Notes: generated by a model not told the origin, from the letters alone. Positions 10,348-34,359 are shown, numbered from the stretch's first letter. The stretch is DNA of 64,000 nt from Methanocaldococcus sp. 16A (GCA_049860595.1 CP187551.1); one strand, 5' to 3'. Translations and numbers: made by a program.

Positions 10348-10416
10348 TTATTTATTTTTTAGACTTTCTTTGACCTCTTTTGCTATAGCCCTACTCAATA
10401 TCGGAGGAACACTCTC
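10348..10416 (-). pseudogene. Stranded second copy of the methyltransferase 3' end (ESVPPILSRAIAKEVKESLKNK*)
   Basis: Reverse-strand translation parallels the gene C-terminus ESVPPILSRVIAKEIKKKL* at 10486-10545, with synonymous changes at E, V, R and L. Confidence 0.85.
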
Positions 10417-10420
10417 TACC

Positions 10421-10484
10421 GAACCTTTTATTAAAAGCTTCACCAAAATATAACACCTCCTCGCTTCGCTCGGAGGTGTAAATT
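10421..10484. repeat. Two-hairpin palindromic module, copy A
   Basis: GAACCTTTT-att-AAAAGCTTC-accaaaa followed by ACACCTCC-tcgcttcgctc-GGAGGTGT-aaatt; same layout as 33403-33465. Confidence 0.85.
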
Positions 10485-10485
10485 C

Positions 10486-11427
10486 TTATAATTTCTTTTT
10501 AATCTCTTTTGCTATTACTCTACTCAATATCGGAGGGACACTTTCTCCAATTTGATTATATTGAGCATCTCTTCCTCCAAAGAATACAAAATCATCAGGA
10601 TAGCTCATTAGTCTTGCCTGTTCTCTTACAGTTAATAATCTATCTTCATAAGGATGAACAAATCTACTTCTTCCTTTAACAGTTGGAGCTAACTTATGAG
10701 GATGGAGACGATACCAATTAAACATTAGTTTCTTCTTCCCTCTATATCTATATAACGCCTCTTCCCATTTTAATTTTGATATCATTTCTATTTTTTCCTT
10801 AGAAAGTTTTTTAATCTCATGGTTTTTAGCATCTTTTGGAATATCTTTTAATGCCTCCTCCACAACAACAATTTTATAGTCTTTCTTTGGTTTTAATTTT
10901 ATATTTGAAATAAACATCCTTGCTCTTTTTGAAGGATTTCCGTAATCTTCAGCTTTCAATATATTAAAATAAACCTTATGCCCTATGTCCCCAAACAACT
11001 TTTTTAGTTCATCTTTAATTTCTTTAATTTGTGGAACATTTTCCATAACAAATATTAAATCCTCATTTTTTTGTGTAAAGTAATCAACATAATTAATATA
11101 GTATAAAACTAACCTGCCGATTTTGTCTTTATACAATCTATCTAATGGATTGTCTTTAATTAGTTTATTTGCCTTTGTAAATGGCTCACATGGAGGAGAG
11201 CCGATAATTACATCAACTTTCTCATTTTTTATAAATTCATCAAATGCTTTTGGAGGAATTCTTTTTATATCATCCATCCACACTGGAGCTTTGATATTGT
11301 ATAAATAAGTTTTTACAACAGGTTTAAAGTTTTCAATAGCTCCCAAAATTTTAAAGTTTTCATCTAAAAAACCTTTTGAAAATCCTCCACATCCACAAAA
11401 TAAATCAATGACATTTATAGTTTCCAT
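10486..11427 (-). CDS. Orphan C5-cytosine DNA methyltransferase
   Basis: Motif I DLFCGCGG, motif IV SPPC, motif VI ENV, motifs IX/X RLLTVRE...QIGESVPP. No adjacent restriction enzyme. Confidence 0.9.
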   Translation of the reverse strand: METINVIDLFCGCGGFSKGFLDENFKILGAIENFKPVVKTYLYNIKAPVWMDDIKRIPPKAFDEFIKNEKVDVIIGSPPCEPFTKANKLIKDNPLDRLYKDKIGRLVLYYINYVDYFTQKNEDLIFVMENVPQIKEIKDELKKLFGDIGHKVYFNILKAEDYGNPSKRARMFISNIKLKPKKDYKIVVVEEALKDIPKDAKNHEIKKLSKEKIEMISKLKWEEALYRYRGKKKLMFNWYRLHPHKLAPTVKGRSRFVHPYEDRLLTVREQARLMSYPDDFVFFGGRDAQYNQIGESVPPILSRVIAKEIKKKL

Positions 11428-11551
11428 AATTTCACCACTAAATAAATTATTAAAAATCTTAATTAAAAAATTATTAAAAAATTATATCAAAAAATTAAAT
11501 TAAAAACTAAATCTCTAAATCTTAAAATAATAAAAATAGATTTTTTATTTT

Positions 11552-14233
11552 TTATTGTTTATTTTTAACGAATTCAATGACTTTCTTCTTAATCTCCTCT
11601 ATATCTCCTTCATATTTTCCTTGAGCTAAATGTTCTCTTCCTCCTCCTTTAGCAATATATCTTATAAGCTCATTCATCTTTATATCAACATTTTCTCCTC
11701 TTTTGCATAGTATATTGCCCTTATCATTTAATAATACAACTATAGCTTTTTCAGTAGCTAAGTTATCAGCTATATTCAACATTTCCTTTGGATTTGCATC
11801 AACTTTTTCAACTAAAACTTTGTAATTTCCAATTGTCTCAAACTTATTCATTAATTCAAATTTCTTAAGTTCTCCTATCTTTTTCTCTAACTCCTCTATC
11901 TTCTTTCTTTGTTCTTTCCACTCTTCAAAGAATCTCTTTATAACTTTTGGTAATTCTTCAGCAGGACATCTTAAAATTTCAGCACTCTCCTCTAAAGTAT
12001 CTTCCATATCTTGAACTGCTTTTAAAGCACTTAAACCACTTGAATAAATCAGCCTTTCTACTCCATCTTGAACTCTTTCTGTCTTAATTATCTTTATAAA
12101 CCCAACTTCTCCAGTCTTTTGGCAATGTGTTCCTCCACATGCTTGAACATCCACAATATCTCCATTTTCATCCTCAATAATAAGTATTCTCAAAACATTT
12201 CCTGGAACAACTCCCCCTTGATATATTCTAAATCCAAACTTCTCTTCAGCTTCATTTCTATCCATAAACACACTTTTTACATTGTAGTTATTTAGAACAA
12301 TTTCATTAGCTATTCTCTCAATTTCTTTCAGTTCTTCTCTGCTTATTCTCTTATAGTGAGTTATGTCCAATCTTGCTTTATCTACATCAACATCTGAACC
12401 TGCCTGCCAAACATGCTTTCCTAAAACTTTTTGAGCTGCTGCATTTATAATGTGTGTTGCAGTGTGGTTTCTCATTAAACTCAACCTTCTATCCCAATCA
12501 ATAACTCCTCTAATAATATCTCCTTCTTTTAATTCATCATTTAAGTTTTCTATTTTATGATATGCAATGTCATTTTCTTTCTGCACATCAATAACTCTAA
12601 ACTTCTTATCTCCTTTTATTATATATCCTGTATCTGCCTTCTGCCCTCCTCCCTCTGGATAAAAGGCAGTTTTATCTAAGATTATATAATCATCAACAAC
12701 CTTTAATATTTTTGCCTCAAACTCTTTCATTTTTGGATATTTGTAAAACAATAGTTCAGTTTTTTCAACATCAACTTCTGGCAATTTAATTTTTTCTTTA
12801 ATTTCTTCTCTGTTTTCGTGTCTCTCAGCAACTATTGTATAAAAGTTATCTGGAATGCTAATATCTTTCCCTAAAGATTTAGCGACATCTTTAACTATTT
12901 CTGGAGGTAATCCATGGCTGTCATACAACTCAATTAAATTATCTAAATCTATGGTTTTTTTACTCTTTAACAATCTCTCCACAATACCTTTACCTCTTTC
13001 AATTGTCTGTCTATATTTATTTGTCTCAATTTCTAAGATTTCCATAATATAATCTTCCATATCCAATAGCTCTGGATATAAATCTTTCATATCTTTCAAT
13101 TGCATTGCAACAATCTCAGTTATTGGTATTGAGAGGTTTAATCTATCCATATGTCTTAATGTTTTCCTTATAAGCATTCTAACTAAATATCCATCTTTAA
13201 CGTTTGATGGTACTATTCCATCTCCTAACATGAAAGCTAAAGCTCTTGTGTGGTCTGCTATTGCATAGATATCTTCATAAGGAGCTATTAACTTGTCTAA
13301 TTCATCAACTGGAATATTTACTTTATTAGCAACCTCCTCCCTCAACTTTCTTAAATCTCCAACATCCTTAACATCCATCAAACCAGCAACTTCAGTTATC
13401 TTAGCTAATATCTCCTTATCTATATCCTTAACTCCAGCATTTTCCTTCAATTTATTAACAACATTTTTAAATATGGCATCATATATTGTTGGTTCTCCAG
13501 TTGAAGCCCAGACAAACCTTTCAATTCCATAACCAGTATCAACTATTTTTAATGGTATCTCTTTATAGCTATCTCCAACTTTCTCATACTGCATAAAAAC
13601 TAAAGTAGCTAATTCAACTCCATGTGTTATTACCTCATAGCACGGCCCAGCATTTCCTCCTCCTTCCCACCAACTCTCAATGAATGTTATAGATTTCTCA
13701 TCAATTCCTAATTTTTTAAAGAAATTAAAACAAAGCTCAACAGTTTCATCCTGCCAATATTTAAAATCATCTTCTCTATTAAAAGCATGATGTCCTCCCA
13801 TTGTGAAACATGTTAAATGCCTTCCAGTCCTTCCAACGTTATCTATATCGTTCAACCTAATACATGGCTGAGCTATAACTAAAGGATTAGCTTTTGGCTT
13901 CACTATACCTTTAGTAACCCATGGTTGAAATACTGCTATAGAAGCTATTGTTAATAAAATATCATCTCTCCATCTTCTTGCAGTTACAGGAGCTCTTTTT
14001 ATTGGTTCATGCCCATGCTCTTTAAAGAAGTTTATAAATTCATTAACCATCTCTTTATAATCATAAGGCTTTTTAGTTATTGGTTTTCCTATAAAGGAAT
14101 AGATATCACAAGGTGCATCCCCACATGTTTCTCTCTCCTCATCTAAAGTCCAAAAGTATTGCCCACATTTTTTACACTTCTTTCTTACAAATCCTAATTC
14201 ATCAAACAATTTTACTTTGTAATTGTGCTCCAT
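11552..14233 (-). CDS. alaS: Alanine--tRNA ligase
   Basis: [26 protein letters not shown] and CGGTH editing motif, GGGR C-terminus. Confidence 0.97.
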
Positions 14234-14299
14234 CCCATCACCTTAATGATTTTTATAAGCTAATCTATGATTTAGGTAAGTTATATTTAAATATTAATT

Positions 14300-14385
14300 A
14301 AGACTTTCGCAGGAATAAATAACATTATTATTGAATATAGAAACCTAAAGGTGTCAAAGTTTCAAACTTTAATGTATAAAGTGTA
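14300..14385 (+). mobile_element. Degenerate MITE-like palindromic repeat (GGACTTTCGCAG family)
   Basis: Left end AAGACTTTCGCAGGAATAAAT and core GAATATAG...CCTAAAGGTGTCAAAGTT match the 50447 copy; right end eroded. Confidence 0.7.
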
Positions 14386-14399
14386 GGGATATATTTTAA

Positions 14400-14776
14400 T
14401 ATTCAAATAATATTTATCACGCTAAAACTTTTTTATTTTTAATTTAAATCTTTTTAAAAACTTATTTTTTGATTTTAAGGATTTTTAGGAAACTTCAAAG
14501 GGCGGTTTATTTTCAATATTTTATTTATTTGGATGTATTAAATTAGTAAGATTTTTATGGAATTTTAACTAATTACTTTTAGATTAAAATTTCTCCAATA
14601 AATAGTTTGATTTTTTAGTTAAGATGTTTTATTATGCTTTTTATTATGGATGCATAAAGTATTTATATTAGTTGTGGATTTATAAATAAAATAAGTAATT
14701 GAGTGGTAGAAATATATACCTCATAAATTAAAACCCTAAAAATGCTTAATTTCAATAAATTCAAAAAATGCCACCT
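14400..14776 (+). promoter_or_regulatory. CRISPR leader
   Basis: AT-rich non-coding stretch abutting the first repeat; the degenerate repeats are at the opposite end of the array. Confidence 0.7.
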
Positions 14777-17700
14777 ATTAAAGTCAGACCGATTCGGTAT
14801 GGAAAGATATATCTAGATAGTCAATATAGCTAATTGATACTATTATAATTAAAGTCAGACCGATTCGGTATGGAAAGATATCATGAATGCTAGTAAATGA
14901 TTATAATTAAAGTCAGACCGATTCGGTATGGAAAGATAATATTAGACTAGATTCAGAATTATAGATTAAAGTCAGACCGATTCGGTATGGAAAGGGAAGA
15001 GTCAGAACATACTTGAAAAGAAGATATGGAATTAAAGTCAGACCGATTCGGTATGGAAAGTGTCTTTGAACATGTTCCCCCACCATAAGTTTAATTATTA
15101 AAGTCAGACCGATTCGGTATGGAAAGCAATCCTTGTTCATGGAAGTAATTACACAATTTTACATTAAAGTCAGACCGATTCGGTATGGAAAGGAATTTGG
15201 AGAGCAATATGCAAGATGGTTGGATAATTAAAGTCAGACCGATTCGGTATGGAAAGTTGAATCTCTAAGAAATACCATATTATTGTTCCAACGATAATTA
15301 AAGTCAGACCGATTCGGTATGGAAAGTTTTATAAAATCTATATTTTTCTGGAATATTGCCATTAAAGTCAGACCGATTCGGTATGGAAACGGGAAAGGAT
15401 ATTTATGAAACCATCTGGAATATAATATATTAAAGTCAGACCGATTCGGTATGGAAACATGGTTTATGGATTTGGACAAAAGTAAATATCTCTGCAAATT
15501 AAAGTCAGACCGATTCGGTATGGAAACACAATTACCGACGCAGTTCCACCTATAACTTCTGCAATTAAAGTCAGACCGATTCGGTATGGAAACTGAACAA
15601 GGATTGTGGGGGAAAGTAATAATTTACGATGAATTATTAAAGTCAGACCGATTCGGTATGGAAACTCTCCTTCATAAACACTAACAGTAATTGAGCTTGG
15701 ATACATTATTAAAGTCAGACCGATTCGGTATGGAAACATAATACAATCAACAATATTGAAGAAAGTGTAAAGAATTAAAGTCAGACCGATTCGGTATGGA
15801 AACTAAGTTTAATTTTGTTCTTTAAATCCTTCAAAGTTATTCTATTAAAGTCAGACCGATTCGGTATGGAAACATGTTTATTTATGCATTAGTTATGATT
15901 GCTGTAGATTAAAGTCAGACCGATTCGGTATGGAAACCAGTTCTAAAATTCTTGCCATTGCTGATAATTCAATTAAAGTCAGACCGATTCGGTATGGAAA
16001 CTTAAGAAATCAAGGTTTTGGGAATTGTTATGGAATTAAAGTCAGACCGATTCGGTATGGAAACCATCAGTATTGGAAAATAAACTAACATTAGCTTCAA
16101 ATCATTAAAGTCAGACCGATTCGGTATGGAAACTTAAGAAATCAAGGTTTTGGGAATTGTTATGGAATTAAAGTCAGACCGATTCGGTATGGAAACCATC
16201 AGTATTGGAAAATAAACTAACATTAGCTTCAAATCATTAAAGTCAGACCGATTCGGTATGGAAACTATATTGCTTTTTCAGGAGGTAAGGATTCTACAGC
16301 ATATTAAAGTCAGACCGATTCGGTATGGAAACAGCAGAGCTTCAAGCAGCACTTGCAGAAAGAAAAAGAAGAATTAAAGTCAGACCGATTCGGTATGGAA
16401 ACCTTAGAGATTGGAGCTGGAAGGATGTTTGGGCTTAATTAAAGTCAGACCGATTCGGTATGGAAACTATTCTCAATGCTGACCTGCTAATAAATCTCTT
16501 CACATCTAATTAAAGTCAGACCGATTCGGTATGGAAACTTTTATCTCTTTACAAAGAGGAACGCACTTGCTGTTAAATTAAAGTCAGACCGATTCGGTAT
16601 GGAAACCAGTATGGTTTAGTTCGTTATAGCTGAAGGCCTTAAATTAAAGTCAGACCGATTCGGTATGGAAACTTTATTACTGCATATATTGGTATGGTGG
16701 TGTTATTTATTAAAGTCAGACCGATTCGGTATGGAAACTTCTCTTGGTGTAACATTTTCACCAGCAAGAGCTCTAACTGATTAAAGTCAGACCGATTCGG
16801 TATGGAAACAGTGTTCCTGTTTTATAAATTTGTCCATTCACATATAATTAAAGTCAGACCGATTCGGTATGGAAACTGTTTGAATATACAATCTGTTTTT
16901 CTAAGTCGAATGTTATTAAAGTCAGACCGATTCGGTATGGAAACATTGCAAAAATAGCATATTATCATATAGTTTTGACAATTAAAGTCAGACCGATTCG
17001 GTATGGAAACTAGAAAGGTGTAGAAAAGAGCTAATATTATTTATGGTGAATTAAAGTCAGACCGATTCGGTATGGAAACTTGGGACTTCAGCTGAAGATG
17101 CTATATACGTCAGGAATTAAAGTCAGACCGATTCGGTATGGAAACCAAAAATTTTTTAGATTATGTAAGGAATAACTGTAACTATTAAAGTCAGACCGAT
17201 TCGGTATGGAAACTTGTTTTTGCCCTGATTTGGTTAGATAGATAAAAAAATTAAAATTAAAGTCAGACCGATTCGGTATGGAAACTACTTTACAAGAAAA
17301 GCAGATTATACTGGAAACTATTAAAGTCAGACCGATTCGGTATGGAAACGGAGTTGGGAAAACTGTGATGATGAGGAAAGTTGCTCAAATTATTAAAGTC
17401 AGACCGATTCGGTATGGAAACAGCTTCTTTTTCACTCCCATTTTCAATGAGTTCTTTAAATTAAAGTCAGACCGATTCGGTATGGAAACTACAGCTTGCT
17501 TTAGAGCTTGATAAAACATTCGACTTAGAATTAAAGTCAGACCGATTCGGTATGGAAACAAAGTTTTAGGCAATCCAATGACGTCAGCTAATTTATTAAA
17601 GTCAGACCGATTCGGTATGGAAACTCACAGCCAATAAAAAAAGCAAGATGAGATTAATAAAATAATTAAAGTCAGACCGATTCGGTATGGAAACGAGGAA

Positions 17701-19255
17701 GTTTTGGAACTGAAAACCAATGCAATGAGAAGATTAAAGTCAGACCGATTCGGTATGGAAACACGATTAATGTGACAACATTAGCAAATACTGTAATGAA
17801 TTAAAGTCAGACCGATTCGGTATGGAAACTTGCAAATTTAAAAAACAAATAAAATAAAGCTCTATTAAACATTAAAGTCAGACCGATTCGGTATGGAAAC
17901 AGCTCTTCAAGTAATTGTTTTTGCATCTTAAGATATTGAATTATTAAAGTCAGACCGATTCGGTATGGAAACTTCAACCCCCCCAATTTTTGTTGATAAT
18001 ATATGACAAATTAAAGTCAGACCGATTCGGTATGGAAACCAACAATTAGGATTTATGGATAAATTAGCTCTATCATTAAAGTCAGACCGATTCGGTATGG
18101 AAACTTAATGCATCTTCTGGTTTTAAATTTAGGATTTCGTCTAACATTAAAGTCAGACCGATTCGGTATGGAAACCCAACTGTTGAAGAAATACATCAAA
18201 AACAAATGCTATTAAAGTCAGACCGATTCGGTATGGAAACAGAAATTAGGTTACAAGAGCCGATAGAAGAAACATGATTAAAGTCAGACCGATTCGGTAT
18301 GGAAACTCATATCTACAACTTTGTCGATTATTTCCACAAGAAATTAAAGTCAGACCGATTCGGTATGGAAACATCTAATTGACTTTATTCTCTTCTCAAT
18401 ATCATCATCCTTCTCATTAAAGTCAGACCGATTCGGTATGGAAACATACATAAGCTGTTACTTTTGTGATATGAACACAGTTCTCATTAAAGTCAGACCG
18501 ATTCGGTATGGAAACTTTAAGAATTACAAAGTATTTAGATAATTCATTATTATTAAAGTCAGACCGATTCGGTATGGAAACATATTCTTTTTGTGATGCA
18601 AAGTATAAATTCCAGTATTAAAGTCAGACCGATTCGGTATGGAAACATATTCTTTTTGTGATGCAAAGTATAAATTCCAGTATTAAAGTCAGACCGATTC
18701 GGTATGGAAACTCAATCCAATGTCCATTTTCTTCATCTTCTCTACAACCACAATTAAAGTCAGACCGATTCGGTATGGAAACCTCTGTCTTTTCATCAAA
18801 ATAACAAATCCCGCATCTATTAAAGTCAGACCGATTCGGTATGGAAATATCCAAAAAGACGATGATGATATTGAGAGTATGATTATTAAAGTCAGACCGA
18901 TTCGGTATGGAAATATCCAAAAAGACGATGATGATATTGAGAGTATGATTATTAAAGTCAGACCGATTCGGTATGGAAATATCCAAAAAGACGATGATGA
19001 TATTGAGAGTATGATTATTAAAGTCAGACCGATTCGGTATGGAAATATCCAAAAAGACGATGATGATATTGAGAGTATGATTATTAAAGTCAGACCGATT
19101 CGGTATGGAAATAAGGGGCTTAATTGGACATAGAACATATACACATACTTTATAATTAAAATCAGATCGATACAGTATGGAAACGTTTTAGAAGTCCATA
19201 ACTCAAAGAAATCGGTGTTATAATTTTATTAAAATCAGACTGATAATGTAGGGGA
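14777..19255 (+). CRISPR. CRISPR array, repeat ATTAAAGTCAGACCGATTCGGTATGGAAAC (30 bp), about 65 intact plus 2 degenerate repeats; no cas genes in the window
   Basis: Regular 30-bp repeats with mostly 33-43-bp spacers from 14777 to 19112; degenerate copies at 19155 and 19228. Confidence 0.99.
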
Positions 19256-19572
19256 TATAGTTTTCTTTTTTCTTTAATAAAAATGGATTCTATTTTTTTA
19301 GCTACCCTAATTAAAACCATACTAATTCAAAACATTGACTTTTTTATAAACCTCATAGATTTTACATTAAATTCTCGCATAATCGTTTTGATTTCTAAAT
19401 TTAAAATAAACAATTACCTTATTTTCTTTAAAACTTCGATTTCCTTTATCAGAATATTCTCCTCGAAAAGGTAAAATATTTTTGAAATATATTACAATTA
19501 TTTTGATATAAAAAACTCAACTTTTTTATACAGTTTATTCAAACTATAACACAAAAAATATTTGGGGATAGA

Positions 19573-20214: not shown

Positions 20215-20218
20215 TAAA

Positions 20219-20686
20219 ATGAAAAAGAAAAAAGATATACTAATTGTTGGTTGTGGAAATCTCTTATTTGGAGATGACGGCTTTGGTTGTGAGGTTGTTA
20301 GCAGATTGGAAAAAATGGAACTCCCAGAGAACGTTGAAGTTATTGATGCTGGGGCTAGTGGAGCTTATTATTTAATGACCTTAGTTGATGAAGATATTAA
20401 AAAAATAATAGTTGTTGATGCTATTGATTTTAATTTAGAACCTGGAACAATAAAAAAGATAGATGTTGATGAACTACCAAATATTAGGAAATATTCCTTT
20501 GATGCTCACAACGTTCCATTAGCACCATTTCTCAAAGAGTTGCATGATAAAGGAATTGAAGTCGTAATTATTGGCTGCCAAGGTAAAGAATTTACAATGC
20601 CTGATATAAAACCAGGGCTCTCTGAAGAAGTAGCTAAAGCTGTAGATAAAGCAATAGAAATGATTTTAGAAGAGATAAAGAAATAA
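20219..20686 (+). CDS. Hydrogenase maturation endopeptidase (FrhD/HycI type)
   Basis: GCGNLLFGDDGFG, IVVDAID and DAHNVPL motifs. Confidence 0.9.
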   Translation: MKKKKDILIVGCGNLLFGDDGFGCEVVSRLEKMELPENVEVIDAGASGAYYLMTLVDEDIKKIIVVDAIDFNLEPGTIKKIDVDELPNIRKYSFDAHNVPLAPFLKELHDKGIEVVIIGCQGKEFTMPDIKPGLSEEVAKAVDKAIEMILEEIKK

Positions 20687-20696
20687 GGGATTTTAC

Positions 20697-24338: not shown

Positions 24339-24342
24339 TTAA

Positions 24343-25554
24343 TTATTTTATTTTTTCTCTAAGAATAACTAAAGAGTTTTTATTTATATCATTTTCATTA
24401 AATCTCTCAATATATTCTCCATCTAAATAATTTAAAAGTTCTCTTCCAATCTCTCCAACAAATATGTATTGACAGTTAAAGTTTTTTAAAGCTTCAGATA
24501 GCTTTTTTACATCAATTTCTTCACAAACTACTCCAAAATCTCCGCCAATATAGATATCACCATCAAACACTTCTAAAAAATCTTTTATGGCATAATAGAT
24601 AGCTTTTACATCCAAACCAGGATTAATATTTTTTATTAAAATATTTTCATTAACTTTTTTAATTTCCATTCTATTTTTTATGGTGAAGGTTTTTAATCTT
24701 TCTTTTATCTCATCCACATCAACCAAATTTTTACAAATCTCTATTGCAAATAATGAATTTTCTACAAAATGTAATCCAAAGATGTTCTTGCTGAACTCAA
24801 ATATTTCATCAAAGTATTCAAATTTTAGAGGATATTTGTTTAAAATCTTTGCCTTATCTACATCAACAATATTTAGACATTTATGGTTTATTTTTAAGTT
24901 ATATCTGTTAATATCCCTCTTATTTATAAAAGATATTTCAGCATTTTTTAAAGAGCCAAATTTTGCAGTTAATGCGTCTCTTAATCCTTTTGCTATTTTA
25001 TAATTTTCTAATACATTTGTTATAGCTCCATATTTACATTTAATTAGTCCTAATGAAGTTTCAAATATAAAAAAGTCATATTTATCAACATCCAAACGAT
25101 TTAATACCTTTAGAATAGTTGGTGGAGCAATTGAGCCATAATTCGAGTTGTGTAAGTAAGTTGTATATTCTTCTTTTAAGATATGGTTTATTAATGATGT
25201 TGTTGTAGTCTTTCCCTTAACTCCAGTGATATTTATTATTTTTTTATGGATATTTCCAAATTTTTCCTTTAATATTTCAGATACTGCATCAGTAAATGGA
25301 ATAAAGTTAATATCTATTGGACAGTGTATAGGAGCTATAATTTTATCATACCTTTCAAAGTTTGGAGGTTCAAAAAATAGATTGAATTTATTTTTAAATC
25401 TTTCTTTTAATTTTAAATACCTTTCCTTAAAATCATCAGATTTTTTTATTTTTTGATAAATATCCCACACATCAACATCATAGCCCAAATTTAAATATTC
25501 TTCAGCTAAATTCAATGCTCCATGATTAACATCAACAATCAACATAAAAAACAC
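24343..25554 (-). CDS. cfbE: Coenzyme F430 synthase (Mur-ligase-like)
   Basis: VDVNHGA, APIHCP, ITGVKGKTTT, FETSLG and NINPGL motifs. Start codon uncertain. Confidence 0.8.
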   Translation of the reverse strand: MFFMLIVDVNHGALNLAEEYLNLGYDVDVWDIYQKIKKSDDFKERYLKLKERFKNKFNLFFEPPNFERYDKIIAPIHCPIDINFIPFTDAVSEILKEKFGNIHKKIINITGVKGKTTTTSLINHILKEEYTTYLHNSNYGSIAPPTILKVLNRLDVDKYDFFIFETSLGLIKCKYGAITNVLENYKIAKGLRDALTAKFGSLKNAEISFINKRDINRYNLKINHKCLNIVDVDKAKILNKYPLKFEYFDEIFEFSKNIFGLHFVENSLFAIEICKNLVDVDEIKERLKTFTIKNRMEIKKVNENILIKNINPGLDVKAIYYAIKDFLEVFDGDIYIGGDFGVVCEEIDVKKLSEALKNFNCQYIFVGEIGRELLNYLDGEYIERFNENDINKNSLVILREKIK

Positions 25555-25591
25555 CAAAAAAAATTTTAAATGGAAATTTTTGGAAAGGTCT

Positions 25592-26194
25592 TTAATTTGC
25601 ACTTCCTTTAAGCATTGCTATGACAAACCTCGTCTCTGCCTTATCCATCTCTTTTAATGAATTTCCTTCAATTATAAATGTATTGTTTATTCTTGTTATC
25701 GTTGCATTATGTTGTGTTCTTATAAACTTTATAACCATTGTTTTATTGTTGTGAATTAAATATTCACTCTCATTTATTTTAAGTTTATCTATTGATGTTT
25801 TTCCATTTGCAAAGATACTTTTTACAGTTACGGTTGTGTTTGTTCTGTTTAATTCAACAACTATATTGTGAGGATAAAGCTGATTAAACCACTCTAATTT
25901 TGTTATTAAATCAACTATTGAAACTCCTCCTTCATCTGGCTTTAAACTTAAATTTCCATAAATGTAAATCAATATTTTAGAGTGATAGTAATCATAAATC
26001 TCTTTATCAGTTGTATTTATCAACTTTACTTCTTTTGCTTCACCAATTGTAGCTCTTAAAGGAACTTTTATTGGAGTTCCATTAAACTCAATTACAATAT
26101 CTTTTTTTAAATCATTCATATTTTTAGAGGTAATGCACATAGACATTGAAGTTATTAATACAATTACTCCAAGAATTAATAGCAGTTTTTTCAT
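25592..26194 (-). CDS. Secreted/lipoprotein of unknown function
   Basis: N-terminal KK, hydrophobic stretch and SMC lipobox-like Cys; several N-x-T/S sequons. Confidence 0.7.
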   Translation of the reverse strand: MKKLLLILGVIVLITSMSMCITSKNMNDLKKDIVIEFNGTPIKVPLRATIGEAKEVKLINTTDKEIYDYYHSKILIYIYGNLSLKPDEGGVSIVDLITKLEWFNQLYPHNIVVELNRTNTTVTVKSIFANGKTSIDKLKINESEYLIHNNKTMVIKFIRTQHNATITRINNTFIIEGNSLKEMDKAETRFVIAMLKGSAN

Positions 26195-26853
26195 TTTTTC
26201 CCTCCTTTTATGTAATCATATCCATAATAAAGCAGGATAAACAAAATTACTAAATACCAATATTCTTTAACCCAGATTGATAAATAACCCAAATATGGAA
26301 TTACCAAAGGATGTCCATTTATAACTACAACTCTCTGCTTTATTTGGTTAACTGAAACGAGCTCTGGGTCGTGTATATTGTTATTGTCTCCTTTTATTAT
26401 AAAGTAAGTGTTATTATTAAATTTAACCTTATCAATGACTCTATGAATTACAGGTTTTGTAGGACTTTTAGAAATATTAACCTCTAATATTTTATAATTA
26501 CCTTTATCTGTTTTTAAATCACCTAAGACGTTTATTGAGATTTCTTTATTATCATAATTTTCTTTAAATATACATAGAGTTTTAGTTGGATTTAGATAAA
26601 GTTTATAATCTATTTCATATAACAAATATTGATAATAAGGCCAGTGAGCTTTATAAACAACAATATCTCCAACTTTAACATCATTTGGATTAAATTCAAA
26701 GCCAGCATTTTCTACTACAACCAAATCTCCTCTCTTCATTATTGGATACATACTATCAGAGACTACGACATTTACATGGCTCCAAATTAAAAACAAAACT
26801 ACTAAGAATATTATCCATTCAACAATATCTTTTTTACTGATTTTTAAGTTAAT
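26191..26853 (-). CDS. sec11: Signal peptidase I (Sec11 type)
   Basis: VVSDSMYP (catalytic Ser), VIHRV and KGDNN. The frame is open upstream to an ATT placed 4 nt after a GAGGTGA SD. Confidence 0.88.
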   Translation of the reverse strand: MNLKISKKDIVEWIIFLVVLFLIWSHVNVVVSDSMYPIMKRGDLVVVENAGFEFNPNDVKVGDIVVYKAHWPYYQYLLYEIDYKLYLNPTKTLCIFKENYDNKEISINVLGDLKTDKGNYKILEVNISKSPTKPVIHRVIDKVKFNNNTYFIIKGDNNNIHDPELVSVNQIKQRVVVINGHPLVIPYLGYLSIWVKEYWYLVILFILLYYGYDYIKGGKK

Positions 26854-26865
26854 GTTTTCACCTCT

Positions 26866-27519
26866 CTAATATAAATGAGCATTTTTCATCATCCTTGGAA
26901 TTAAAGCCATTATAACACTTTCTCTGCATAAATCTTTTCTTGTTATGTTATTATCAGTTAGATAACCAATTAAACCAATATTTTTTCCAATATCTTTAAT
27001 TCCCGAAATTTTTTCAGCTATTTTTCCACCTTCAATTCCATTTAACACATTCTCAGCTACAATCTTTGGATATTCAAAGCCCTGAGATAAACCAACAGTC
27101 TCTTTAATTCCATCAAAAACAACACATACATGGATATCTATATAGTGTTCTCCCACTTTTATTAAACCTGCTTCTATTCCTACTGCATAAGTACATTGAA
27201 CTTTTTCAAATGCATTTTTAGCTCTGTTTAATGCTCCTAAATACGTTTCTTCCAGTCCAATAGGATGAGCTGAGACATTACTATCCACATCAACTCCAAC
27301 AACTTCAACAGTCCCTAAAACCTTTTCAAAACCTTCTTTAACCGCCTCTATTTTAACAGGATTTGTTGAACCAACAGCAACAACTCTCAACTTATGCCTT
27401 GCCATGCTCAGCTTTTTAGCTTCCTCAATACATTTTTCATTTTTACATAAAAATCTTCCAAATAAAAAAATTTCTGCTTTTTCACCACAAATCTCACATT
27501 TTTTATTCTCAAATTCCAT
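26866..27519 (-). CDS. Inosine/xanthosine triphosphatase (YjjX family) with N-terminal Zn-finger-like extension
   Basis: GSTNPVKIEAV, GALNRA and GIEAG; CEIC...C...C at the N-terminus. Confidence 0.88.
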   Translation of the reverse strand: MEFENKKCEICGEKAEIFLFGRFLCKNEKCIEEAKKLSMARHKLRVVAVGSTNPVKIEAVKEGFEKVLGTVEVVGVDVDSNVSAHPIGLEETYLGALNRAKNAFEKVQCTYAVGIEAGLIKVGEHYIDIHVCVVFDGIKETVGLSQGFEYPKIVAENVLNGIEGGKIAEKISGIKDIGKNIGLIGYLTDNNITRKDLCRESVIMALIPRMMKNAHLY

Positions 27520-27774
27520 TACAATCCCTTATTTATTTTTGAATTAATGTATTCGTAACTTATATATAAGCTATATGTTATTATCTATACCACCAACAAA
27601 AATATTTATTTGTTTGTTATTTGATTATTAAGATTATTAAATAGAACTCTAGAATAAATACTAAACAGCATTTTAATGCCTATAACATCATTTTTTCATT
27701 AGAATTGTAATAATTTTCAAAAATCTAATTTAAGTTCTTTACAATATATTAGAAAAATACTATGGGGGATTATT

Positions 27775-30700
27775 ATGGCTAAAAAATCTAAAAAAAATAA
27801 TGAAAATAAAAGTAATCTAAGATGTCCAATAGTTTGTGTTTTGGGGCATGTTGACCATGGAAAGTGTTTAATGCCTAACGAGAAAGTATTAACTCCTTTG
27901 GGAGAAATAAAAATAGAAGATTTATTTAAACAAGGAAAAGAGATTATTGAAAAAGATAATAATAAAATGATAAAAAAATTGGATATAGATGTTTATACAT
28001 TAGATGAAAATGGAAAAATTAAGATAATAAAAGCTCCTTATGTATGGAGATTAAAGCATAACGGAAAAATGATAAAGGTAAAGTTAAGAAATTGGCATGC
28101 TATAACAACAACACCTGAACATCCATTTTTAACAAATAATGGATGGATTAAGGCTGAAAATATTAAAAAAGGAGACTTTATAGCCATACCAAAAAAATTA
28201 GATAATAATATAAGCTTTAAAAAATTTGTAGAATTTTGTAAAGATAAATTTGATAATGAAAATATTTCATTGCCTAAATCATTAGATGAGTGGAAAACCA
28301 TATTTTATTTTGCTGGAAAGATATTTGGAGGCTATAAAGAATTTAAAAATGATAAACTAAATGAATTGGAAAAATTAATTAAGATTCTATTTGACCTAAA
28401 CATATTAAAAAATATCACATCATTTCCAAAGATATTATATATTGCTCCAAAGGAATTAGTTGCAGAGTTTATTAAAGGATACTTTGAAATGGCTGGAAAA
28501 ATTAATGCAAAACAAAATAGAGTTGAGATTTTTGGAATTTCAGAAGAATTTATTAGAGGATTTTCTATAATATTGTTGAGATTTGGAGTAATTTCAAAAA
28601 TTTATATTAGAAATAACAATGGCACAAAATATTACCAATTAAATATTGTAGGTAAAAGAAATTTAATAAACTTCAAAAATATTGGATTTGAGATAGATAT
28701 TTTAGACAAAATTATCGAAAAGAGCAGAAAGAGTGAGAAATATCCAATATATAAAGATATGAGAAGATTAAGAATTCTATTTGGATTAACGAAGAGTGAA
28801 GTAAATATTCCATATTATGAAAAATATGGGAATGGAGAAGAAATTCCTTCTTATGAAATTATTGAAAAATTTTTAAACTCATTAAAGCCAAAGAACTTAG
28901 ATAAGAAGATAAGAGTGTTAGAAGGGATAGAAAAAGATTTCAATTATTTAAAATCCTTTGAAAGTGATGGGTTAATAAAAGATAATAACTTAACTGAATT
29001 AGGAAAAGAGGCATTAAATATTTGGAAAAATCATGAATTTGGTGAAGATGATATTAAATACATGAAAAATTTAATTGAAAATATTGCATTTGTTGAAGTT
29101 GAAGATGTTGAAGTTATTGATTATGAGGGCTATGTGTATGATTTAACAACAGAAACACACAATTTTATAGCAAATGGTATTGTTGTACATAACACAACCC
29201 TATTAGATAAGATTAGAAAAACAAGAGTTGCTCAAAGAGAAGCTGGAGGAATAACCCAACATATTGGAGCGAGTGAGATTCCAATTGATGTTATAAAAAG
29301 AGTGTGTGGAGATTTATTAAAGATGTTAAAAGCTGATTTAAAAATTCCTGGATTATTAGTTATTGACACTCCAGGACATGAAGCATTCACTTCATTAAGA
29401 AAAAGAGGAGGAGCTTTGGCTGATATAGCTATATTAGTTGTTGATATAAACGAGGGCTTTAAACCTCAAACTATAGAAGCAGTTAATATATTAAGGCAAT
29501 GTAAAACCCCATTTGTTGTAGCGGCAAATAAAATTGACTTAATCCCAGGATGGAACTCTAAAGAAATTCCATTTATATTAAACTTTAATGAAAAGGCTCA
29601 ACATCCTAATGCTTTAACTGAATTTGAAATAAGATTGTATGAGAATGTAATAAAACCATTAAATGAGCTTGGTTTTGATGCTGATTTATATTCAAGAGTT
29701 CAAGATGTTACTAGAACTGTATGTATAATCCCTGTCTCGGCAGTAACTGGTGAAGGAATTCCTGATTTATTGATGATGGTTGCTGGATTAGCTCAGAGGT
29801 TTTTGGAAGATAGATTAAAGCTCAACGTTGAGGGGTATGCAAAAGGGACAATATTAGAGGTTAAAGAGGAAAAAGGATTAGGAACTACAATAGATGCAAT
29901 AATTTACGATGGAATAGCTAATAGAGGAGATTATTTAGTTGTAGGATTACCAGACGGTGTTTTAGTGACAAGAGTTAAAGCCTTATTAAAACCAAAACCA
30001 TTGGATGAAATGAGAGACCCAAGAGATAAATTTAAGCCTGTAAATGAAGTTACTGCTGCTGCAGGGGTTAAGATAGCAGCTCCAGATTTGGATAAAGTTA
30101 TTGCTGGATGTCCAATAAGGATTGTTCCAAAGGATATGATAGAGGAAGCAAAAGAAGAGGTAATGAGAGAGGTTGAAGAAGCAAAGATTGAGGTTGATAA
30201 TGAAGGAATTTTAATTAAAGCAGATACTCTTGGTTCATTAGAAGCTTTAGCTAATGAATTAAGGAAAGCAGGAGTTAAAATTAAGAAGGCAGAAGTTGGA
30301 GATATAACTAAAAAAGATGTTATTGAGGTTGCATCATACAAGCAGAGTAATCCATTACATGGAGCAATAGTAGGATTTAATGTAAAAATCTTACCTGAAG
30401 CTCAGAAAGAAATTGAAAAATATGACATAAAAGTGTTTTTAGATAATATTATCTACAAGTTAGTTGAGGACTTCACAGAATGGGTTAAAAAAGAGGAAGA
30501 GAGAATTAAATATGGTGAATTTGAAAAGCTCATTAAACCAGCTATTGTTAGAATTCTACCAGATTGTATATTTAGACAAAAAGACCCTGCAATTTGTGGA
30601 GTTGAAGTTATCTCTGGAACATTAAAAGTTGGTTATCCTTTAATGAGAGAGGATGGAATGCAACTTGGTTATGTTAGAGAGATAAAAGATAGAGGAGAAA

Positions 30701-30933
30701 ATGTCAAAGAGGCAAAAGCAGGTAAAGCTGTTTCAATAGCTATAGAAGGAAGAATTACATTAAAAAGGCATGTTGATGAAGGAGATTATATGTATGTAGC
30801 AGTTCCAGAAAGCCATGTTAGAGAGCTATATCACAAATACATGGATAGATTGAGAAACGACGAAAAAGAGGCATTATTAAAATACATGGAATTAATGCAA
30901 AAACTGACAAATAATATATTCTGGGGAAGATAA
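27775..30933 (+). CDS. infB: Translation initiation factor aIF5B (IF-2) with an intein in the P-loop
   Basis: GHVDHGK|intein|TTLLD, GGITQHIGA, DTPGHEAF and NKID motifs. Confidence 0.97.
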   Translation: MAKKSKKNNENKSNLRCPIVCVLGHVDHGKCLMPNEKVLTPLGEIKIEDLFKQGKEIIEKDNNKMIKKLDIDVYTLDENGKIKIIKAPYVWRLKHNGKMIKVKLRNWHAITTTPEHPFLTNNGWIKAENIKKGDFIAIPKKLDNNISFKKFVEFCKDKFDNENISLPKSLDEWKTIFYFAGKIFGGYKEFKNDKLNELEKLIKILFDLNILKNITSFPKILYIAPKELVAEFIKGYFEMAGKINAKQNRVEIFGISEEFIRGFSIILLRFGVISKIYIRNNNGTKYYQLNIVGKRNLINFKNIGFEIDILDKIIEKSRKSEKYPIYKDMRRLRILFGLTKSEVNIPYYEKYGNGEEIPSYEIIEKFLNSLKPKNLDKKIRVLEGIEKDFNYLKSFESDGLIKDNNLTELGKEALNIWKNHEFGEDDIKYMKNLIENIAFVEVEDVEVIDYEGYVYDLTTETHNFIANGIVVHNTTLLDKIRKTRVAQREAGGITQHIGASEIPIDVIKRVCGDLLKMLKADLKIPGLLVIDTPGHEAFTSLRKRGGALADIAILVVDINEGFKPQTIEAVNILRQCKTPFVVAANKIDLIPGWNSKEIPFILNFNEKAQHPNALTEFEIRLYENVIKPLNELGFDADLYSRVQDVTRTVCIIPVSAVTGEGIPDLLMMVAGLAQRFLEDRLKLNVEGYAKGTILEVKEEKGLGTTIDAIIYDGIANRGDYLVVGLPDGVLVTRVKALLKPKPLDEMRDPRDKFKPVNEVTAAAGVKIAAPDLDKVIAGCPIRIVPKDMIEEAKEEVMREVEEAKIEVDNEGILIKADTLGSLEALANELRKAGVKIKKAEVGDITKKDVIEVASYKQSNPLHGAIVGFNVKILPEAQKEIEKYDIKVFLDNIIYKLVEDFTEWVKKEEERIKYGEFEKLIKPAIVRILPDCIFRQKDPAICGVEVISGTLKVGYPLMREDGMQLGYVREIKDRGENVKEAKAGKAVSIAIEGRITLKRHVDEGDYMYVAVPESHVRELYHKYMDRLRNDEKEALLKYMELMQKLTNNIFWGR
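27865..29193 (+). mobile_element. Intein (443 aa) with degenerate LAGLIDADG domain
   Basis: C1 (CLMPNE), block B TPEHPF, block F VYDLT, terminal HN followed by extein Thr. Confidence 0.93.
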
Positions 30934-30944
30934 TTCCTATTTTT

Positions 30945-31907
30945 TTAGATTTTATTATTATCTAATATTTTATTGTATATATCAATAGCCTCTTCAATTC
31001 TACCCAATTTTTCAAGTATTCTCGCTTTTTTTATCAGTGAATTAGTTAGTATAAAATTATTGTATTTTAATTCTGAAATAAGCTCATCATAAATTTTTAA
31101 TGCTTCATCAAGTTTTTTTAAATGTTCATATACAACAGCTTTATAAAATTTTGCTTCAATATCTTTAGGAAACTTCTCTAAATATTTATTAAGACTTTTT
31201 AGGGCATCTTCATAATTTCCAGCAATTAATTCAATATATCCAATATCTTTATATGCATGTATCCAATCTTCATTTAATTCAACTGCAATATATAAACATT
31301 TAAGCGCCTCTTTGTATTTTCCCAATTTTTTTAACATTTTCCCTTTTAAATACCACGCATACGCATCATTTTTATTAATCTCTATCACTTTATCCAAGCA
31401 TTTAATTGTCTCTTCAACTTTTCCAATATCGTTGAGTAATATTGCTTTTTGTCTCCAAACTGATGACAACCTATCATTCAAAGACAAAAGTTCATCAAAA
31501 TTTTTTAATGCTTCTTCATATCTCCCCAATTCAATAAATATTAACGCTTTATGGAATGGAGATAGATAGCATTTTGATGATACTTTTGAGAGTTTATCAC
31601 TATACTTTAATGTTTTTTCATAATCTCCTTTAACAAAATTTAAACATATCAAATTTGCCCAAGATAACGGAGATTTTTCTTTCCCATTAGCTATTTTTTC
31701 AAAATATTTCATGGATGTTTCCATATCCCCCATAACTTTTAAAATTATGGCTTTTATATATAGAACTAAAGAATTTTTTGGGTCTAATAATAAAGCTTCA
31801 TCCAAATATTTTATTGCTTTTTCAAAATCCCCTTTATCAGAAGATTCAATCGCTTTAATAACATTTTTTAAAACTTCAAGAGTTTTTATCATATCATTAC
31901 AGTCCAT
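30945..31907 (-). CDS. Tetratricopeptide repeat protein
   Basis: Repeated W/Y-x-KG/KA...LG-YEEA...D TPR units. Confidence 0.88.
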   Translation of the reverse strand: MDCNDMIKTLEVLKNVIKAIESSDKGDFEKAIKYLDEALLLDPKNSLVLYIKAIILKVMGDMETSMKYFEKIANGKEKSPLSWANLICLNFVKGDYEKTLKYSDKLSKVSSKCYLSPFHKALIFIELGRYEEALKNFDELLSLNDRLSSVWRQKAILLNDIGKVEETIKCLDKVIEINKNDAYAWYLKGKMLKKLGKYKEALKCLYIAVELNEDWIHAYKDIGYIELIAGNYEDALKSLNKYLEKFPKDIEAKFYKAVVYEHLKKLDEALKIYDELISELKYNNFILTNSLIKKARILEKLGRIEEAIDIYNKILDNNKI

Positions 31908-32100
31908 TTACATCACTTTTATAATTTAGATTCGTAGATAAATATTTATAAATATTAAAATGAAACCAAAATATTTTAAACACTGTATTATTGAGTATAG
32001 ATGAATATATATACCTTTTGGAAGATTTTCGAACATGAACCATTTGAATATAGCTAAAATAATATGAAATTATCAAAATATAGCTATAGTCTAATATAGT

Positions 32101-32174
32101 CTATAGAACTTTCACAAGATTGTTGATTCCCTTTAAGCATCTTATTCAATATATAACGTGCGAAAGTCCTATAG
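32101..32174. mobile_element. Short divergent MITE-like palindromic repeat
   Basis: Ends CTATAGAACTTTCACA...TGCGAAAGTCCTATAG; interior differs from the main family. Confidence 0.6.
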
Positions 32175-32244
32175 TCTATTCAACCACTAATAAAAAATAA
32201 AATAGTTGCATAAAACTAAAATTTTAACTAAAAAATTTATTTAG

Positions 32245-32340
32245 AATAGGATTTTCGCAGTTTATATATTAAATTTGGAACTTTAATACTTTTAGGTGTC
32301 TATATTCATAAAATATATTTATTCCTACGAAAGTCCTATT
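32245..32340 (-). mobile_element. MITE-like palindromic repeat (GGACTTTCGCAG family)
   Basis: Inverted ends AATAGGATTTTCGCAG / CTACGAAAGTCCTATT with the family core. Confidence 0.85.
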
Positions 32341-32350
32341 AGAAATTCCT

Positions 32351-32761
32351 TTAATTTCTACCATATATAGCATACAACCTGCTAAACTTATCAAGAGTGT
32401 TGCATAACTTATTATTTAATATTTCTTCAAGGGTTTCAATAGCCCCTGTAGGACATACTTCTTTACAAATTTCAACATCTCTCTTATAGCATCCATCACA
32501 TTTTATTGCTATTCCATCAATTCTTATAGCTCCAAACGGACATGCTAAGGCACATAAACCACATCCAATGCATTTATCTTTTATAACTACTACTTTATCG
32601 TCAATCCTCTCTATAGCATTTTCTGGACATGCATATAAGCAGGGATTTTTATCACAATGCATACATTTTATTGGGAATTCGTTAAAGGTGATTCCATTTA
32701 TTGGGCAACTTCTCTCGCATCTTCTACAACCAATGCAAGAGCCAATATTAACTACTACCAT
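32351..32761 (-). CDS. porF: Pyruvate oxidoreductase-associated polyferredoxin PorF
   Basis: Multiple CxxCxxCxxxCP motifs; last gene of the por operon. Confidence 0.8.
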
Positions 32762-32773
32762 AATTTCACCAAA

Positions 32774-33268
32774 TTATGGTTGAACTTTTGCATCTATGGT
32801 TATTTTTGAAATTAAGCTGTTATCTGTTTTTTGTGATGGTAGAGACATCTTTCCAAATAAATCTAAGGATTTGTCTCTCTTAGCAAATATTAGCTCATTT
32901 ACATCAACAAGCTCTAAGCATCTCTTTGAGCATGCTTTAACACATGCAGGCTCGTCTCCATCGCATAAAATACACTTGTATGCTTTGTCTTCCATTAATA
33001 TAGCACCAAATGGACATGCTAAGGCACATAAACCACATCCAATACAAACTTCCTCATTTAAATATACATAACCATCTTTATGCTCAATTGCTAAGACTGG
33101 GCAGACTTCTTTACATGGAGCTGAAGCACATTGCTGACAAAGAATTGGGATGTATTTACCATCTTTCTCCATTATACTTATTCTTCCTACTTTATTTTTT
33201 TGCATACATGCTTTAACACAATCTCCACAGTTATCACAGTTGTAGTTTGCCATTATTATTTTTTTCAT
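32774..33268 (-). CDS. porE: Pyruvate oxidoreductase-associated Fe-S protein PorE (CooF-like)
   Basis: CDNCGDC, CQQCASAPC and [10 protein letters not shown] at 33268 follows a GAGGTGA SD. Confidence 0.82.
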   Translation of the reverse strand: MKKIIMANYNCDNCGDCVKACMQKNKVGRISIMEKDGKYIPILCQQCASAPCKEVCPVLAIEHKDGYVYLNEEVCIGCGLCALACPFGAILMEDKAYKCILCDGDEPACVKACSKRCLELVDVNELIFAKRDKSLDLFGKMSLPSQKTDNSLISKITIDAKVQP

Positions 33269-33312
33269 CTCTATCACCTCTAAATTCAAAAATATAATAG
33301 AAGAAAATGAAA

Positions 33313-33340
33313 GAAACTTTAAAGAAAGTTTCACCAAAAA
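33313..33340. repeat. Solo copy of hairpin 1 of the two-hairpin module
   Basis: GAAACTTT-aaag-AAAGTTTC-accaaaaa. Confidence 0.7.
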
Positions 33341-33359
33341 TAAATTATTTATATCTCTT

Positions 33360-33398
33360 TTATAGCCCCAACAACTTACATTTTTCATCAATATATCT
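33360..33398 (-). pseudogene. Stranded second copy of the porB 3' end ([12 protein letters not shown])
   Basis: Encodes the same 12 aa plus stop as 33472-33510, with 6 synonymous and no non-synonymous differences. Confidence 0.9.
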
Positions 33399-33402
33399 CC
33401 AA

Positions 33403-33465
33403 ATGAAACTTTAAGAAAGTTTCATCAAAGCTAACACCTCCTCGCTATGCTCGGAGGTGTAAATT
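33403..33465. repeat. Two-hairpin palindromic module, copy B
   Basis: ATGAAACTTT-aag-AAAGTTTCAT-caaa followed by ACACCTCC-tcgctatgctc-GGAGGTGT-aaatt. Confidence 0.85.
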
Positions 33466-33471
33466 AAAATA

Positions 33472-34359
33472 TTATAAACCTAACAACTTACACTTTTCGT
33501 CTATATATCTTTGAATTCTTTCAATATCCTCGTCAGTTAAGTGTCTATATCTTTTCTGCATCTTCAAATACTCTCTAACTGGCTTTCTCTTAGCTGGTTT
33601 GTATGTAATTCTAAATTCCCCATTTTCAATCTCATAAAGTGGGAAAACTCCAGTTTCAACAGCCAATCTTCCAATTTCTATTGTTTTTTCTGGAGGATAT
33701 CCCCAACCTGTTGTACAAGGCTGTAATACTTGTATGAATTTAGGCCCTTCGATACTTAAAGCTTTTTTAACCTTTCTCATGAAATCTTCAGGATATGAGA
33801 TGCAAGCAGTAGCTACATAAGGAATGCCATGAGCTGCCATTATCATTGTCATGTCTTTTTTAGGTCTATCCTCTCCTCTAATTTTTGAACCTGCTGGAGA
33901 GGTTGTTGTAGCAGCCATAAATGGAGTTGAGGAACTTCTCTGTATTCCAGTGTTCATGTAAGCTTCGTTATCGTACATAATATACAATATATCGTGCCCT
34001 CTCTCCATAGCACCACTTAATGCCTGAAAACCAATATCTGCTGTTCCACCATCTCCTCCAATAGCTATAACATTTATTTTTTTATCAGCATATTTTCCTC
34101 TCTTTCTTTTTAATGCTTTTACAGCTGCCTCAATACCACTTGCTGTTGCTGCAGCGTTTTCAAATGCTGTATGTATCCACGGAACTCTCCATGATGTTTC
34201 TGGGTAGGGTGTTGTCATAACCTCTAAACATCCAGTAGCGGTTGATATAATTGTGTTTTTTCCAGCCACTTTTAGCAGTAACCTTGCTACAATTGCAGCT
34301 CCACAACCAGCACATCCTCTATGCCCAGGGGCAAAGTATTCCTCTCTTGGAAATTGCAT
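33472..34359 (-). CDS. porB: Pyruvate:ferredoxin oxidoreductase beta subunit
   Basis: GHRGCAGC, ThDP motif GGDGG...[16 protein letters not shown]. Confidence 0.95.

Follow-up and report, generated by a model that had tools for sequence, protein, structure and literature searches.

Palindromic modules lying between diverged copies of gene ends in Methanocaldococcus

A stretch of 64,000 nucleotides (nt) from Methanocaldococcus sp. 16A (GCA_049860595.1, CP187551.1; hereafter the window) carries two small modules, each made of two hairpins and each lying between the 3′ end of a gene and a second, diverged copy of that same gene end. Our best explanation, whose chances we put at about even, is that insertion itself creates such repeats, by duplicating long and variable lengths of target, and that the two copies then exchange sequence while the cassette spreads by homologous recombination. 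Comparison of related genomes showed exchange between copies after insertion, swapping of modules between elements, and recombinational spread to orthologues and paralogues. Below, G000 denotes the source genome and G001 to G016 the other genomes of the genus (17 in all); L numbers denote individual extracted loci, and C1, C2 and C3 the contigs of a genome.

Two modules in the window and their relatives in the genus

A search of the window for ACACCTCC and GGAGGTGT separated by 9 to 13 nt gave two matches (10453-10479 and 33434-33460, both with 11 nt between them) and none in 100 shuffles. The genes adjoining both modules lie on the minus strand, as do the repeat and module features described here. 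At the first locus, a C5 cytosine DNA methylase gene (10486-11427; an open reading frame [ORF] matching PF00145 with an E value of 4.9e-48) has a duplicated 3′ end. Its in-gene, or left, copy (10483-10546, including the stop codon at 10486-10488) is followed along the gene by a GAATTT junction on the left of hairpin 2 (10480-10485), hairpin 2 itself (ACACCTCC-GAGCGAAGCGA-GGAGGTGT, 10453-10479), hairpin 1 (TGGTGAAGCTTTT-AAT-AAAAGGTTC, 10421-10445), 3 nt, and another copy of the final ~20 codons that has a stop codon of its own (10348-10417). The tail of this stranded, or right, copy resembles that of the sole copy in G001, which has no module there. A repeat search gave 49 nt at 86% identity, and 52 of 64 positions are identical when gaps are allowed. 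The copies differ by four synonymous and seven nonsynonymous changes and six gap columns, ending in ...KKKL* in the gene and ...ESLKNK* in the stranded copy.

At the second locus, the gene is porB-like (33472-34368; ORF, PF02775) and resembles the thiamine pyrophosphate-binding beta subunit of a 2-oxoacid:ferredoxin oxidoreductase. The in-gene copy (33472-33510; 39 nt, 85% identity) ends with the stop codon and is followed by the spacer TATTTTAATTT (33461-33471), in whose place the empty sites of relatives read TAA-ttaaAATTT. Next come hairpin 2 (ACACCTCC-GAGCATAGCGA-GGAGGTGT, 33434-33460), hairpin 1 (TGATGAAACTTT-CTT-AAAGTTTC, 33405-33427), and a 39-nt stranded copy of the stop codon and the 12 codons before it (33360-33398; 33/39 identical). 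All six differences between the copies are synonymous and none is nonsynonymous. A second, solo hairpin 1, recognized by its repeat family and by pattern match, lies downstream of the stranded copy (33313-33336). The hairpins of both modules were identified by pattern match and folding, the modules giving z scores of -5.4 and -7.5 with none of 200 shuffles folding as well.

An earlier note on this DNA had described one common order at both loci, and our analysis bears this out (stop codon, [G/T]AATTT, hairpin 2, hairpin 1, second gene-end copy). Its statement that the copies differ mainly at synonymous positions holds at the porB-like locus and fails at the methylase locus. Both stranded copies of the window start at AGA after GG, as it said, but other loci break this rule.

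Two further observations concern the methylase locus. Positions 10348-10446 contain a 32-codon ORF whose TTG start is within hairpin 1 and whose frame continues across the stranded end of the methylase gene. In addition, positions 10315-10330 and 10481-10496, on opposite strands, are alike at 15 of 16 nt (AGAAATTATAA.AATT). These are the last codons and stop of a convergent adenylosuccinate-synthetase-like gene and of the methylase gene, and the likeness may be due to chance in AT-rich DNA.

The whole G000 genome has four two-hairpin modules, each lying between diverged direct repeats. At C1:688713, a ~75-nt repeat covers the 3′ end of a purB-like gene, which looks like an adenylosuccinate lyase gene judging from its position and tail. 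At C1:13508, a membrane subunit gene (PF00146) contributes its ribosome-binding site, start codon and first 12 codons to the repeat, so that duplication affects 5′ ends as well. A strict hairpin-2 pattern found 69 copies in 11 of the 17 genomes of the genus, module counts reaching 14 in G001, 14 in G005 and 12 in G012, and none in 23 genomes of the sister family. A reversed control pattern gave no match.

To measure the flanking repeats, the 200 nt to the left of hairpin 2 were aligned with the 330 nt to the right. A repeat with a z score of at least 7 was present at 34 of the 69 modules versus 2 of 299 random AATTT sites of G000; the link between modules and duplicates proposed for the two window loci is thus general and far beyond chance. 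Among the 49 modules whose left flank is free of other modules, 33 scored at least 30, compared with 4% of ~600 control sites, and several lower-scoring ones have short real repeats when set by eye against empty sites. The repeats are 12 to 86 nt long across loci and unrelated from locus to locus. Some are nearly or fully identical (35/35, 32/33, 37/39, 39/41). A search of G000 that was independent of the motif also yielded structured inserts of 50 to 170 nt between direct repeats, with other module types (C1:11532, 219703, 290749, 390320, 824419 and 877788). Between the repeats there are 55 to 160 nt of hairpins and nothing else, and the same modules occur at dozens of unrelated targets. Several genomes that were assembled independently of one another show this arrangement at the same loci, which excludes an artifact of mixed-strain assembly. 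In public reads, no single run covered over a quarter of the sampled words.

The repeats are not confined to gene 3′ ends, as had been supposed. At repeat-bearing loci the whole gene is on the hairpin-2 side. At ~20 loci a 3′ end reads into the element, and at nine others 5′ ends or operon junctions are duplicated, with the 5′ end reading away from the element and the 3′ end of the upstream operon gene often kept whole in the right copy. The 3′ ends of tRNA genes are duplicated as well (L038, L045, L046). At C1:824419 (L176), the frame of the gene enters the hairpin element and stops at a TAG in the hairpin, and relatives that carry other modules there have other tails.

The module kinds, namely, hairpin 2, hairpin 1 (TGRTGAA), a CCATAGGG..CCCTATTGG hairpin and a GAGGCATTGC..GCAATGCATC hairpin, occur in varied combinations. 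The right copy starts 0 to 6 nt past the last hairpin, whose end reads ..AAAG[GT]TTC(AT) or ..CCCTATGG. In composite copies the left copy directly abuts the first hairpin (L043, L040, L016), the element starting with CCATAGGG..CCCTATTGG and ending with CCAATAGGG..CCCTATGG; the simple copies of the window are without such ends. Simple copies have a locus-specific spacer of 1 to 38 nt, ending in AATTT, between the left copy and hairpin 2. At C1:433484 and 1191679, G000 has variant hairpins, ACACCTCTGC..GCAGAGGTGT followed by AAATTT, beside CATAGAGGG..CCCTCTATTG hairpins; the variants are probably a sister module type.

Most of the 69 copies have AATTT or AAGTT to the left of hairpin 2. An AATTT-like motif is already present at the empty-site junction of the porB-like locus, L068, L050 and L065 and is absent from that of L008, L014, L015 and L057; AATTT may belong either to the target or to the element. 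An all-against-all comparison of the left 40 nt before AATTT matched only orthologous loci and shared hairpin modules, and transduced flanks of other copies were therefore rejected as the source of the left spacers. Microhomology was rejected as an explanation too, since by eye the bases preceding the left repeat did not consistently match the right end of the element.

Relatives with a single copy were found at the orthologous sites, a comparison that the earlier note had called for. The methylase locus is empty, with one gene-end copy and the same neighbor gene, in G001, G002 and G011. The stranded tails of G000 (..ESLKNK*) and G007 (..ENLKK*) resemble the sole copy of the empty site (..EKLKNR*), and the in-gene tail (..KKKL*) is like alleles from different contexts. 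The porB-like locus is empty in G005, G007, G002, G013, G003, G004 and G015 and filled in G000, G014, G011, G006, G012 and G001; G010 has a remnant without a stranded copy. G000 is itself empty at no fewer than 20 loci that are filled elsewhere, where the right copy and the downstream sequence are colinear with G000. Automatic measurement of the overlap against these empty sites was noisy near zero and was kept out of the counts. At C1:290749, where the element lies directly against the stop codon, G007 and G006 have a single copy to which each of the two 52-nt copies is colinear. Both copies are also colinear with the native single copy at L068, at L003 and at the porB-like locus of G012. The native state of C1:877788 is two overlapping genes (TTATGA); in the filled state, the left copy has a new 9-nt tail and stop, followed by the element and a right copy that serves the downstream gene.

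Exchange between copies and spread to other genes

Within a genome, the two copies share substitutions that are specific to the lineage. Examples are ATTAAGT in G007 versus ATTGAGT in G000 at the methylase locus, GTTGCT versus GTTGTT, and 30 identical nt in G005 at C1:290749. At the purB-like locus, a comparison of G000 with G014, which are ~96% identical in these regions, shows that the in-gene and stranded copies have traded sites 7, 41, 43 and 55, with sites 25 and 29 following position. At C1:824419, five genomes have a common right junction and different left modules.

Over 10 independent 3′-end loci, the differences between copies fall 10:10:43 on codon positions 1:2:3 (43/63 at the third position), 40 being synonymous and 23 not. 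By our own rough estimate, about 45% would be expected at the third position of a freely decaying copy, and the bias exceeds this. Exchange between the copies would explain such allele-like differences. Segments might shuttle between the expressed and the stranded position, so that selection would see both copies, and their differences would then be those of two alleles, not those between a gene and a fragment of it in decay.

Two cases document spread between homologous genes. At the porB-like locus, G000 and G011 share an identical run of 141 nt (33531..33391 in the window) that starts 21 nt before the in-gene copy, continues through this copy, the spacer and the two hairpins, and ends 8 nt into the stranded copy. 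The gene bodies are identical at 660 of 781 positions (84.5%), the next longest identical run being 39 nt. In G006, the stranded copy and downstream sequence of this locus match G011, but the in-gene copy differs and hairpin 2 is decayed. The second case is a paralogous methylase gene, empty in G000 with the tail AKVVKENLK* and filled in G010 and G014, where the in-gene tail AREIKNNL* is followed by AAGTT and hairpin 2. This arrangement resembles that of the first methylase gene of G006 and G014, and the tail of the stranded copy in the filled alleles is still the native one (by eye, with 1 mismatch in 30). The shared patch and the imported paralogue tail indicate that an element and its adjoining tail are copied between homologous genes. 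The claim that a foreign gene end can arrive with the element thus stands for these two loci; it is less likely to account for the origin of the repeats (see below).

The first methylase gene (L070-L098, 17 genomes) was found in at least five genomic contexts, several of which retain the hairpin cassette. The gene therefore looks mobile.

Origin of the repeats

Duplication at insertion is suggested by the presence of repeats with nearly every simple copy, for several module types and at unrelated coding and noncoding targets. It is also suggested by the identity or near identity of some repeats and by the colinearity of both copies with the native sequence at some loci. According to our best explanation, insertion would duplicate 12 to 86 base pairs (bp) of target on the hairpin-2 side, perhaps through widely staggered breaks or through copying and switching back during replication or repair, and the right end of the element would then abut the second copy exactly. 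The precise right junction, the variable left junction, which shows either an AATTT match or additional bases, and the variable length of the duplication would be in keeping with copying from one end that is loosely resolved at the other. The insertions that survive would be those leaving both neighbors whole, at gene 3′ ends, at 5′ ends with their ribosome-binding site, at operon junctions and at tRNA ends. After insertion, as the comparisons above show, sequence is exchanged between the copies and modules are swapped between elements, and the cassette, or the in-gene end with the element, is copied by homologous recombination into the orthologues of other lineages and into paralogues. As part of this explanation, and with the same evenly balanced confidence, we regard the two-hairpin modules as members of a genus-restricted, nonautonomous, modular family of palindromic elements.

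A further proposal is one that we put forward only tentatively. The hairpin cassettes may be mobile DNA without a transposase of its own, with host replication or repair copying a module into a break or a stalled fork and duplicating tens of target bases. The repeat-element-repeat cassette would then home by recombination into orthologues and paralogues, and the genes that are hit would keep two alternative ends that change places, one expressed and the other silent.

Several observations weigh against duplication at insertion. No pair of flank-identical genomes differed only by an element and a duplication, and no fresh insertion was caught. At L013 (G002; the same intergenic region as C1:13508 of G000), the module is at the same place and the long repeat is missing, either because a simple insertion took place there independently or because the right copy was lost. 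The sequence of hairpin 2 is identical in dozens of copies whose flanking repeats differ by 5 to 20%, so that homogenization of the element or selection would be needed. In many simple elements, L067, L047 and L014 among them, the left spacer has no obvious counterpart after the right copy, unlike the prediction of a plain target duplication. The third-position excess would follow from import of a foreign allele as well. Lastly, no partner enzyme was found in searches for PF01797, PF00078, PF01609, tyrosine recombinases and TnpB.

The joining enzyme, possibly of the HUH/Y1 type, suggested in the earlier note found no support. PF01797 matched in 3 of the 17 genomes (G007, G014, G016), among which are neither G000 nor the module-rich genomes G001, G005 and G012. 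The hairpin motifs were absent from the PF01797 insertion sequence (IS) copies, and a Y1/HUH transposase was rejected as mobilizer for want of codistribution and shared ends. The match in G016 (L172, C1:48334-48675) has three in-frame TAG codons and is probably a broken copy. A reverse transcriptase or target-primed retroelement was also rejected, with PF00078 in 0 of 17 genomes and the positive control detected in 3 of 14 named genomes. PF01609 (DDE) is present in 7 of 17 genomes, G000 and G007 not among them, and was dismissed as a parent because the ends of the two IS types examined are unrelated to the modules. TnpB-carrying elements were set aside as well, the flanks of the three PF07282 genes of G000 being without module motif, with matches of only 9 to 13 nt. 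No parent IS with module ends was thus found among PF01609, PF01797 and PF07282 loci, other transposase families not having been searched. Two further candidates were discarded: a diversity-generating retroelement, as the differences are not adenine specific and there is no reverse transcriptase, and translational bypass, as the second copy repeats the gene end instead of continuing the gene.

An Rfam scan of window positions 9000-35000 (E ≤ 1) placed no family on the modules. Elsewhere in the window, 14777-19112 is a large CRISPR array with 65 matches to the repeat family RF01326, two sub-blocks of which score slightly lower. Around 32231-32345 (L027 positions 298 to 412) lies a member of a ~100-nt repeat family that is unrelated to the hairpin modules, with at least 15 further copies in G000 and many in G014, G005, G001 and G007. 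At the porB-like locus of G014, a similar ~100-nt repeat seems to split AAT/ATTT on the left of hairpin 2.

Among the rival explanations, the one that survives best makes the import of a foreign end the very origin of the repeats, as the earlier note had it. A simple insertion in one lineage would enter another together with its gene end, recombining by homology on the gene side, while a trans-acting enzyme would join the hairpin-1 end upstream of the resident gene end and leave the latter stranded. We consider this account as a whole unlikely, although the patch that G000 has in common with G011, which stops on the right 8 nt beyond hairpin 1, and the foreign in-gene and native stranded tails of the paralogous methylase gene are what it predicts. 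It would also fit the in-gene spacers of L067, which are like the G002 allele where the stranded copy and downstream sequence are like the G007 and G014 alleles, the third-position excess of 43/63, and the common start GGN-RGAGAG of all nine stranded methylase copies of both paralogues (9/9, by eye). However, it needs a simple-insertion donor for each locus, yet repeat-free copies are rare, and repeats also occur at 5′ ends, operon junctions and noncoding targets. Gene conversion from a cassette with two repeats would yield the same mosaics without an end-joining enzyme, and the Y1/HUH distribution given above offers no such enzyme in G000, G001, G005 or G012. Lineage-specific substitutions common to both copies also speak against it, and near-identical repeats and the native colinearity of both copies are better accounted for by local target duplication than by import.

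A Campbell-type cycle, to which we give somewhat less credence again, would free a small circle by crossover between the repeats and reinsert it by a single crossover into a homologous gene end, the repeats being its footprint. The reciprocal swap of in-gene and stranded segments between G000 and G014 is in its favor, as are the spread to a paralogue and the mosaics at L005, L018 and L015, where, going from left to right, the left copy passes from native to foreign sequence and the right copy from foreign to native. But such a cycle gives no access to new, unrelated loci, although single genomes have one and the same module at 14 unrelated positions, and the switch points differ between copies, unlike those of a single crossover. 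Neither a circle nor an empty-site joint was present in four metagenome contig sets of relatives, a result that is uninformative on excision.

That the repeats are attL and attR of a tyrosine integrase, the module being a remnant or miniature of an integrative plasmid or virus that rebuilds the gene end, is very improbable. In its favor, the targets include tRNA 3′ ends and protein-gene ends, 12 to 86 nt is within the range of archaeal att sites, and G000 has tyrosine-recombinase matches, all of them on its 27-kb contig C2 (14908-15609 and 24463-24873; none on the chromosome at E ≤ 0.001). Against it, contigs C2 and C3 carry no modules, no kilobase-sized element bounded by hairpin 2 and hairpin 1 was found in G000, and between the repeats lie only 55 to 160 nt of hairpin modules, without cargo, at dozens of unrelated targets.

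Relation to known elements

If duplication at insertion followed by exchange and spread is correct, small palindromic repeats in a hyperthermophilic archaeon create duplicated gene ends and carry gene tails between paralogues and species, and a silent second allele of the last 10 to 25 codons is kept beside many core genes. The modules would then offer a testable case for the spread of transposase-free hairpin repeats and for the origin of variable long target duplications, unexplained since IS1549 and IS1634. For annotation, it would mean that some gene ends run into elements and that short ORFs downstream of genes are gene-end copies.

Suyama, Lathe and Bork are said to have described in 2005 the MJRE1-3 repeats of M. 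jannaschii, reportedly palindromic and extragenic, with some fused into coding regions. Our hairpin modules are probably the same as these or related to them. A description of palindromic repeats in M. jannaschii is cited in PMC2229807. No report of flanking gene-end duplications at archaeal palindromic repeats was found in full texts, the 2005 MJRE description and supplementary files being outside the scope of that search.

Among known systems, the closest in behavior are IS1549 and IS1634, for which PMC2266710 gives direct repeats of 8 to 514 bp, depending on the copy, and no mechanistic model. The likeness lies in the long, variable-length direct repeats of target and is one of behavior, not of membership. 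Those elements are autonomous, 1.5 to 2 kb long and encode a DDE transposase, whereas the modules are 55 to 160 nt long and geneless, the PF01609 elements examined in relatives have unrelated ends, and G000 has none. REP/BIME, REPIN-RAYT and IS200/IS605-derived elements resemble the modules as mosaics of extragenic palindromes at gene ends, with a pentanucleotide (here AATTT) flanking one side of a hairpin. REP-RAYT and IS200/IS605-derived elements are not known to duplicate their target on insertion and rely on a Y1 HUH enzyme. In contrast, most simple copies of the modules are surrounded by duplications of 12 to 86 nt, and G000 is without PF01797. The length of these repeats likewise sets the modules apart from classical miniature inverted-repeat transposable elements, with their short target duplications of fixed length. 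Integrative elements that carry a replacement end also leave the gene whole and a displaced partial end beyond the insert, and the two copies may differ; however, they are kilobase sized, encode an integrase and use one specific target each, whereas the modules are tiny and have many unrelated targets. Finally, the entry of a cassette into homologous empty sites together with neighboring donor sequence recalls the homing of introns and inteins, from which the modules differ in having no endonuclease gene and in lying within a duplicated target instead of a clean insertion.

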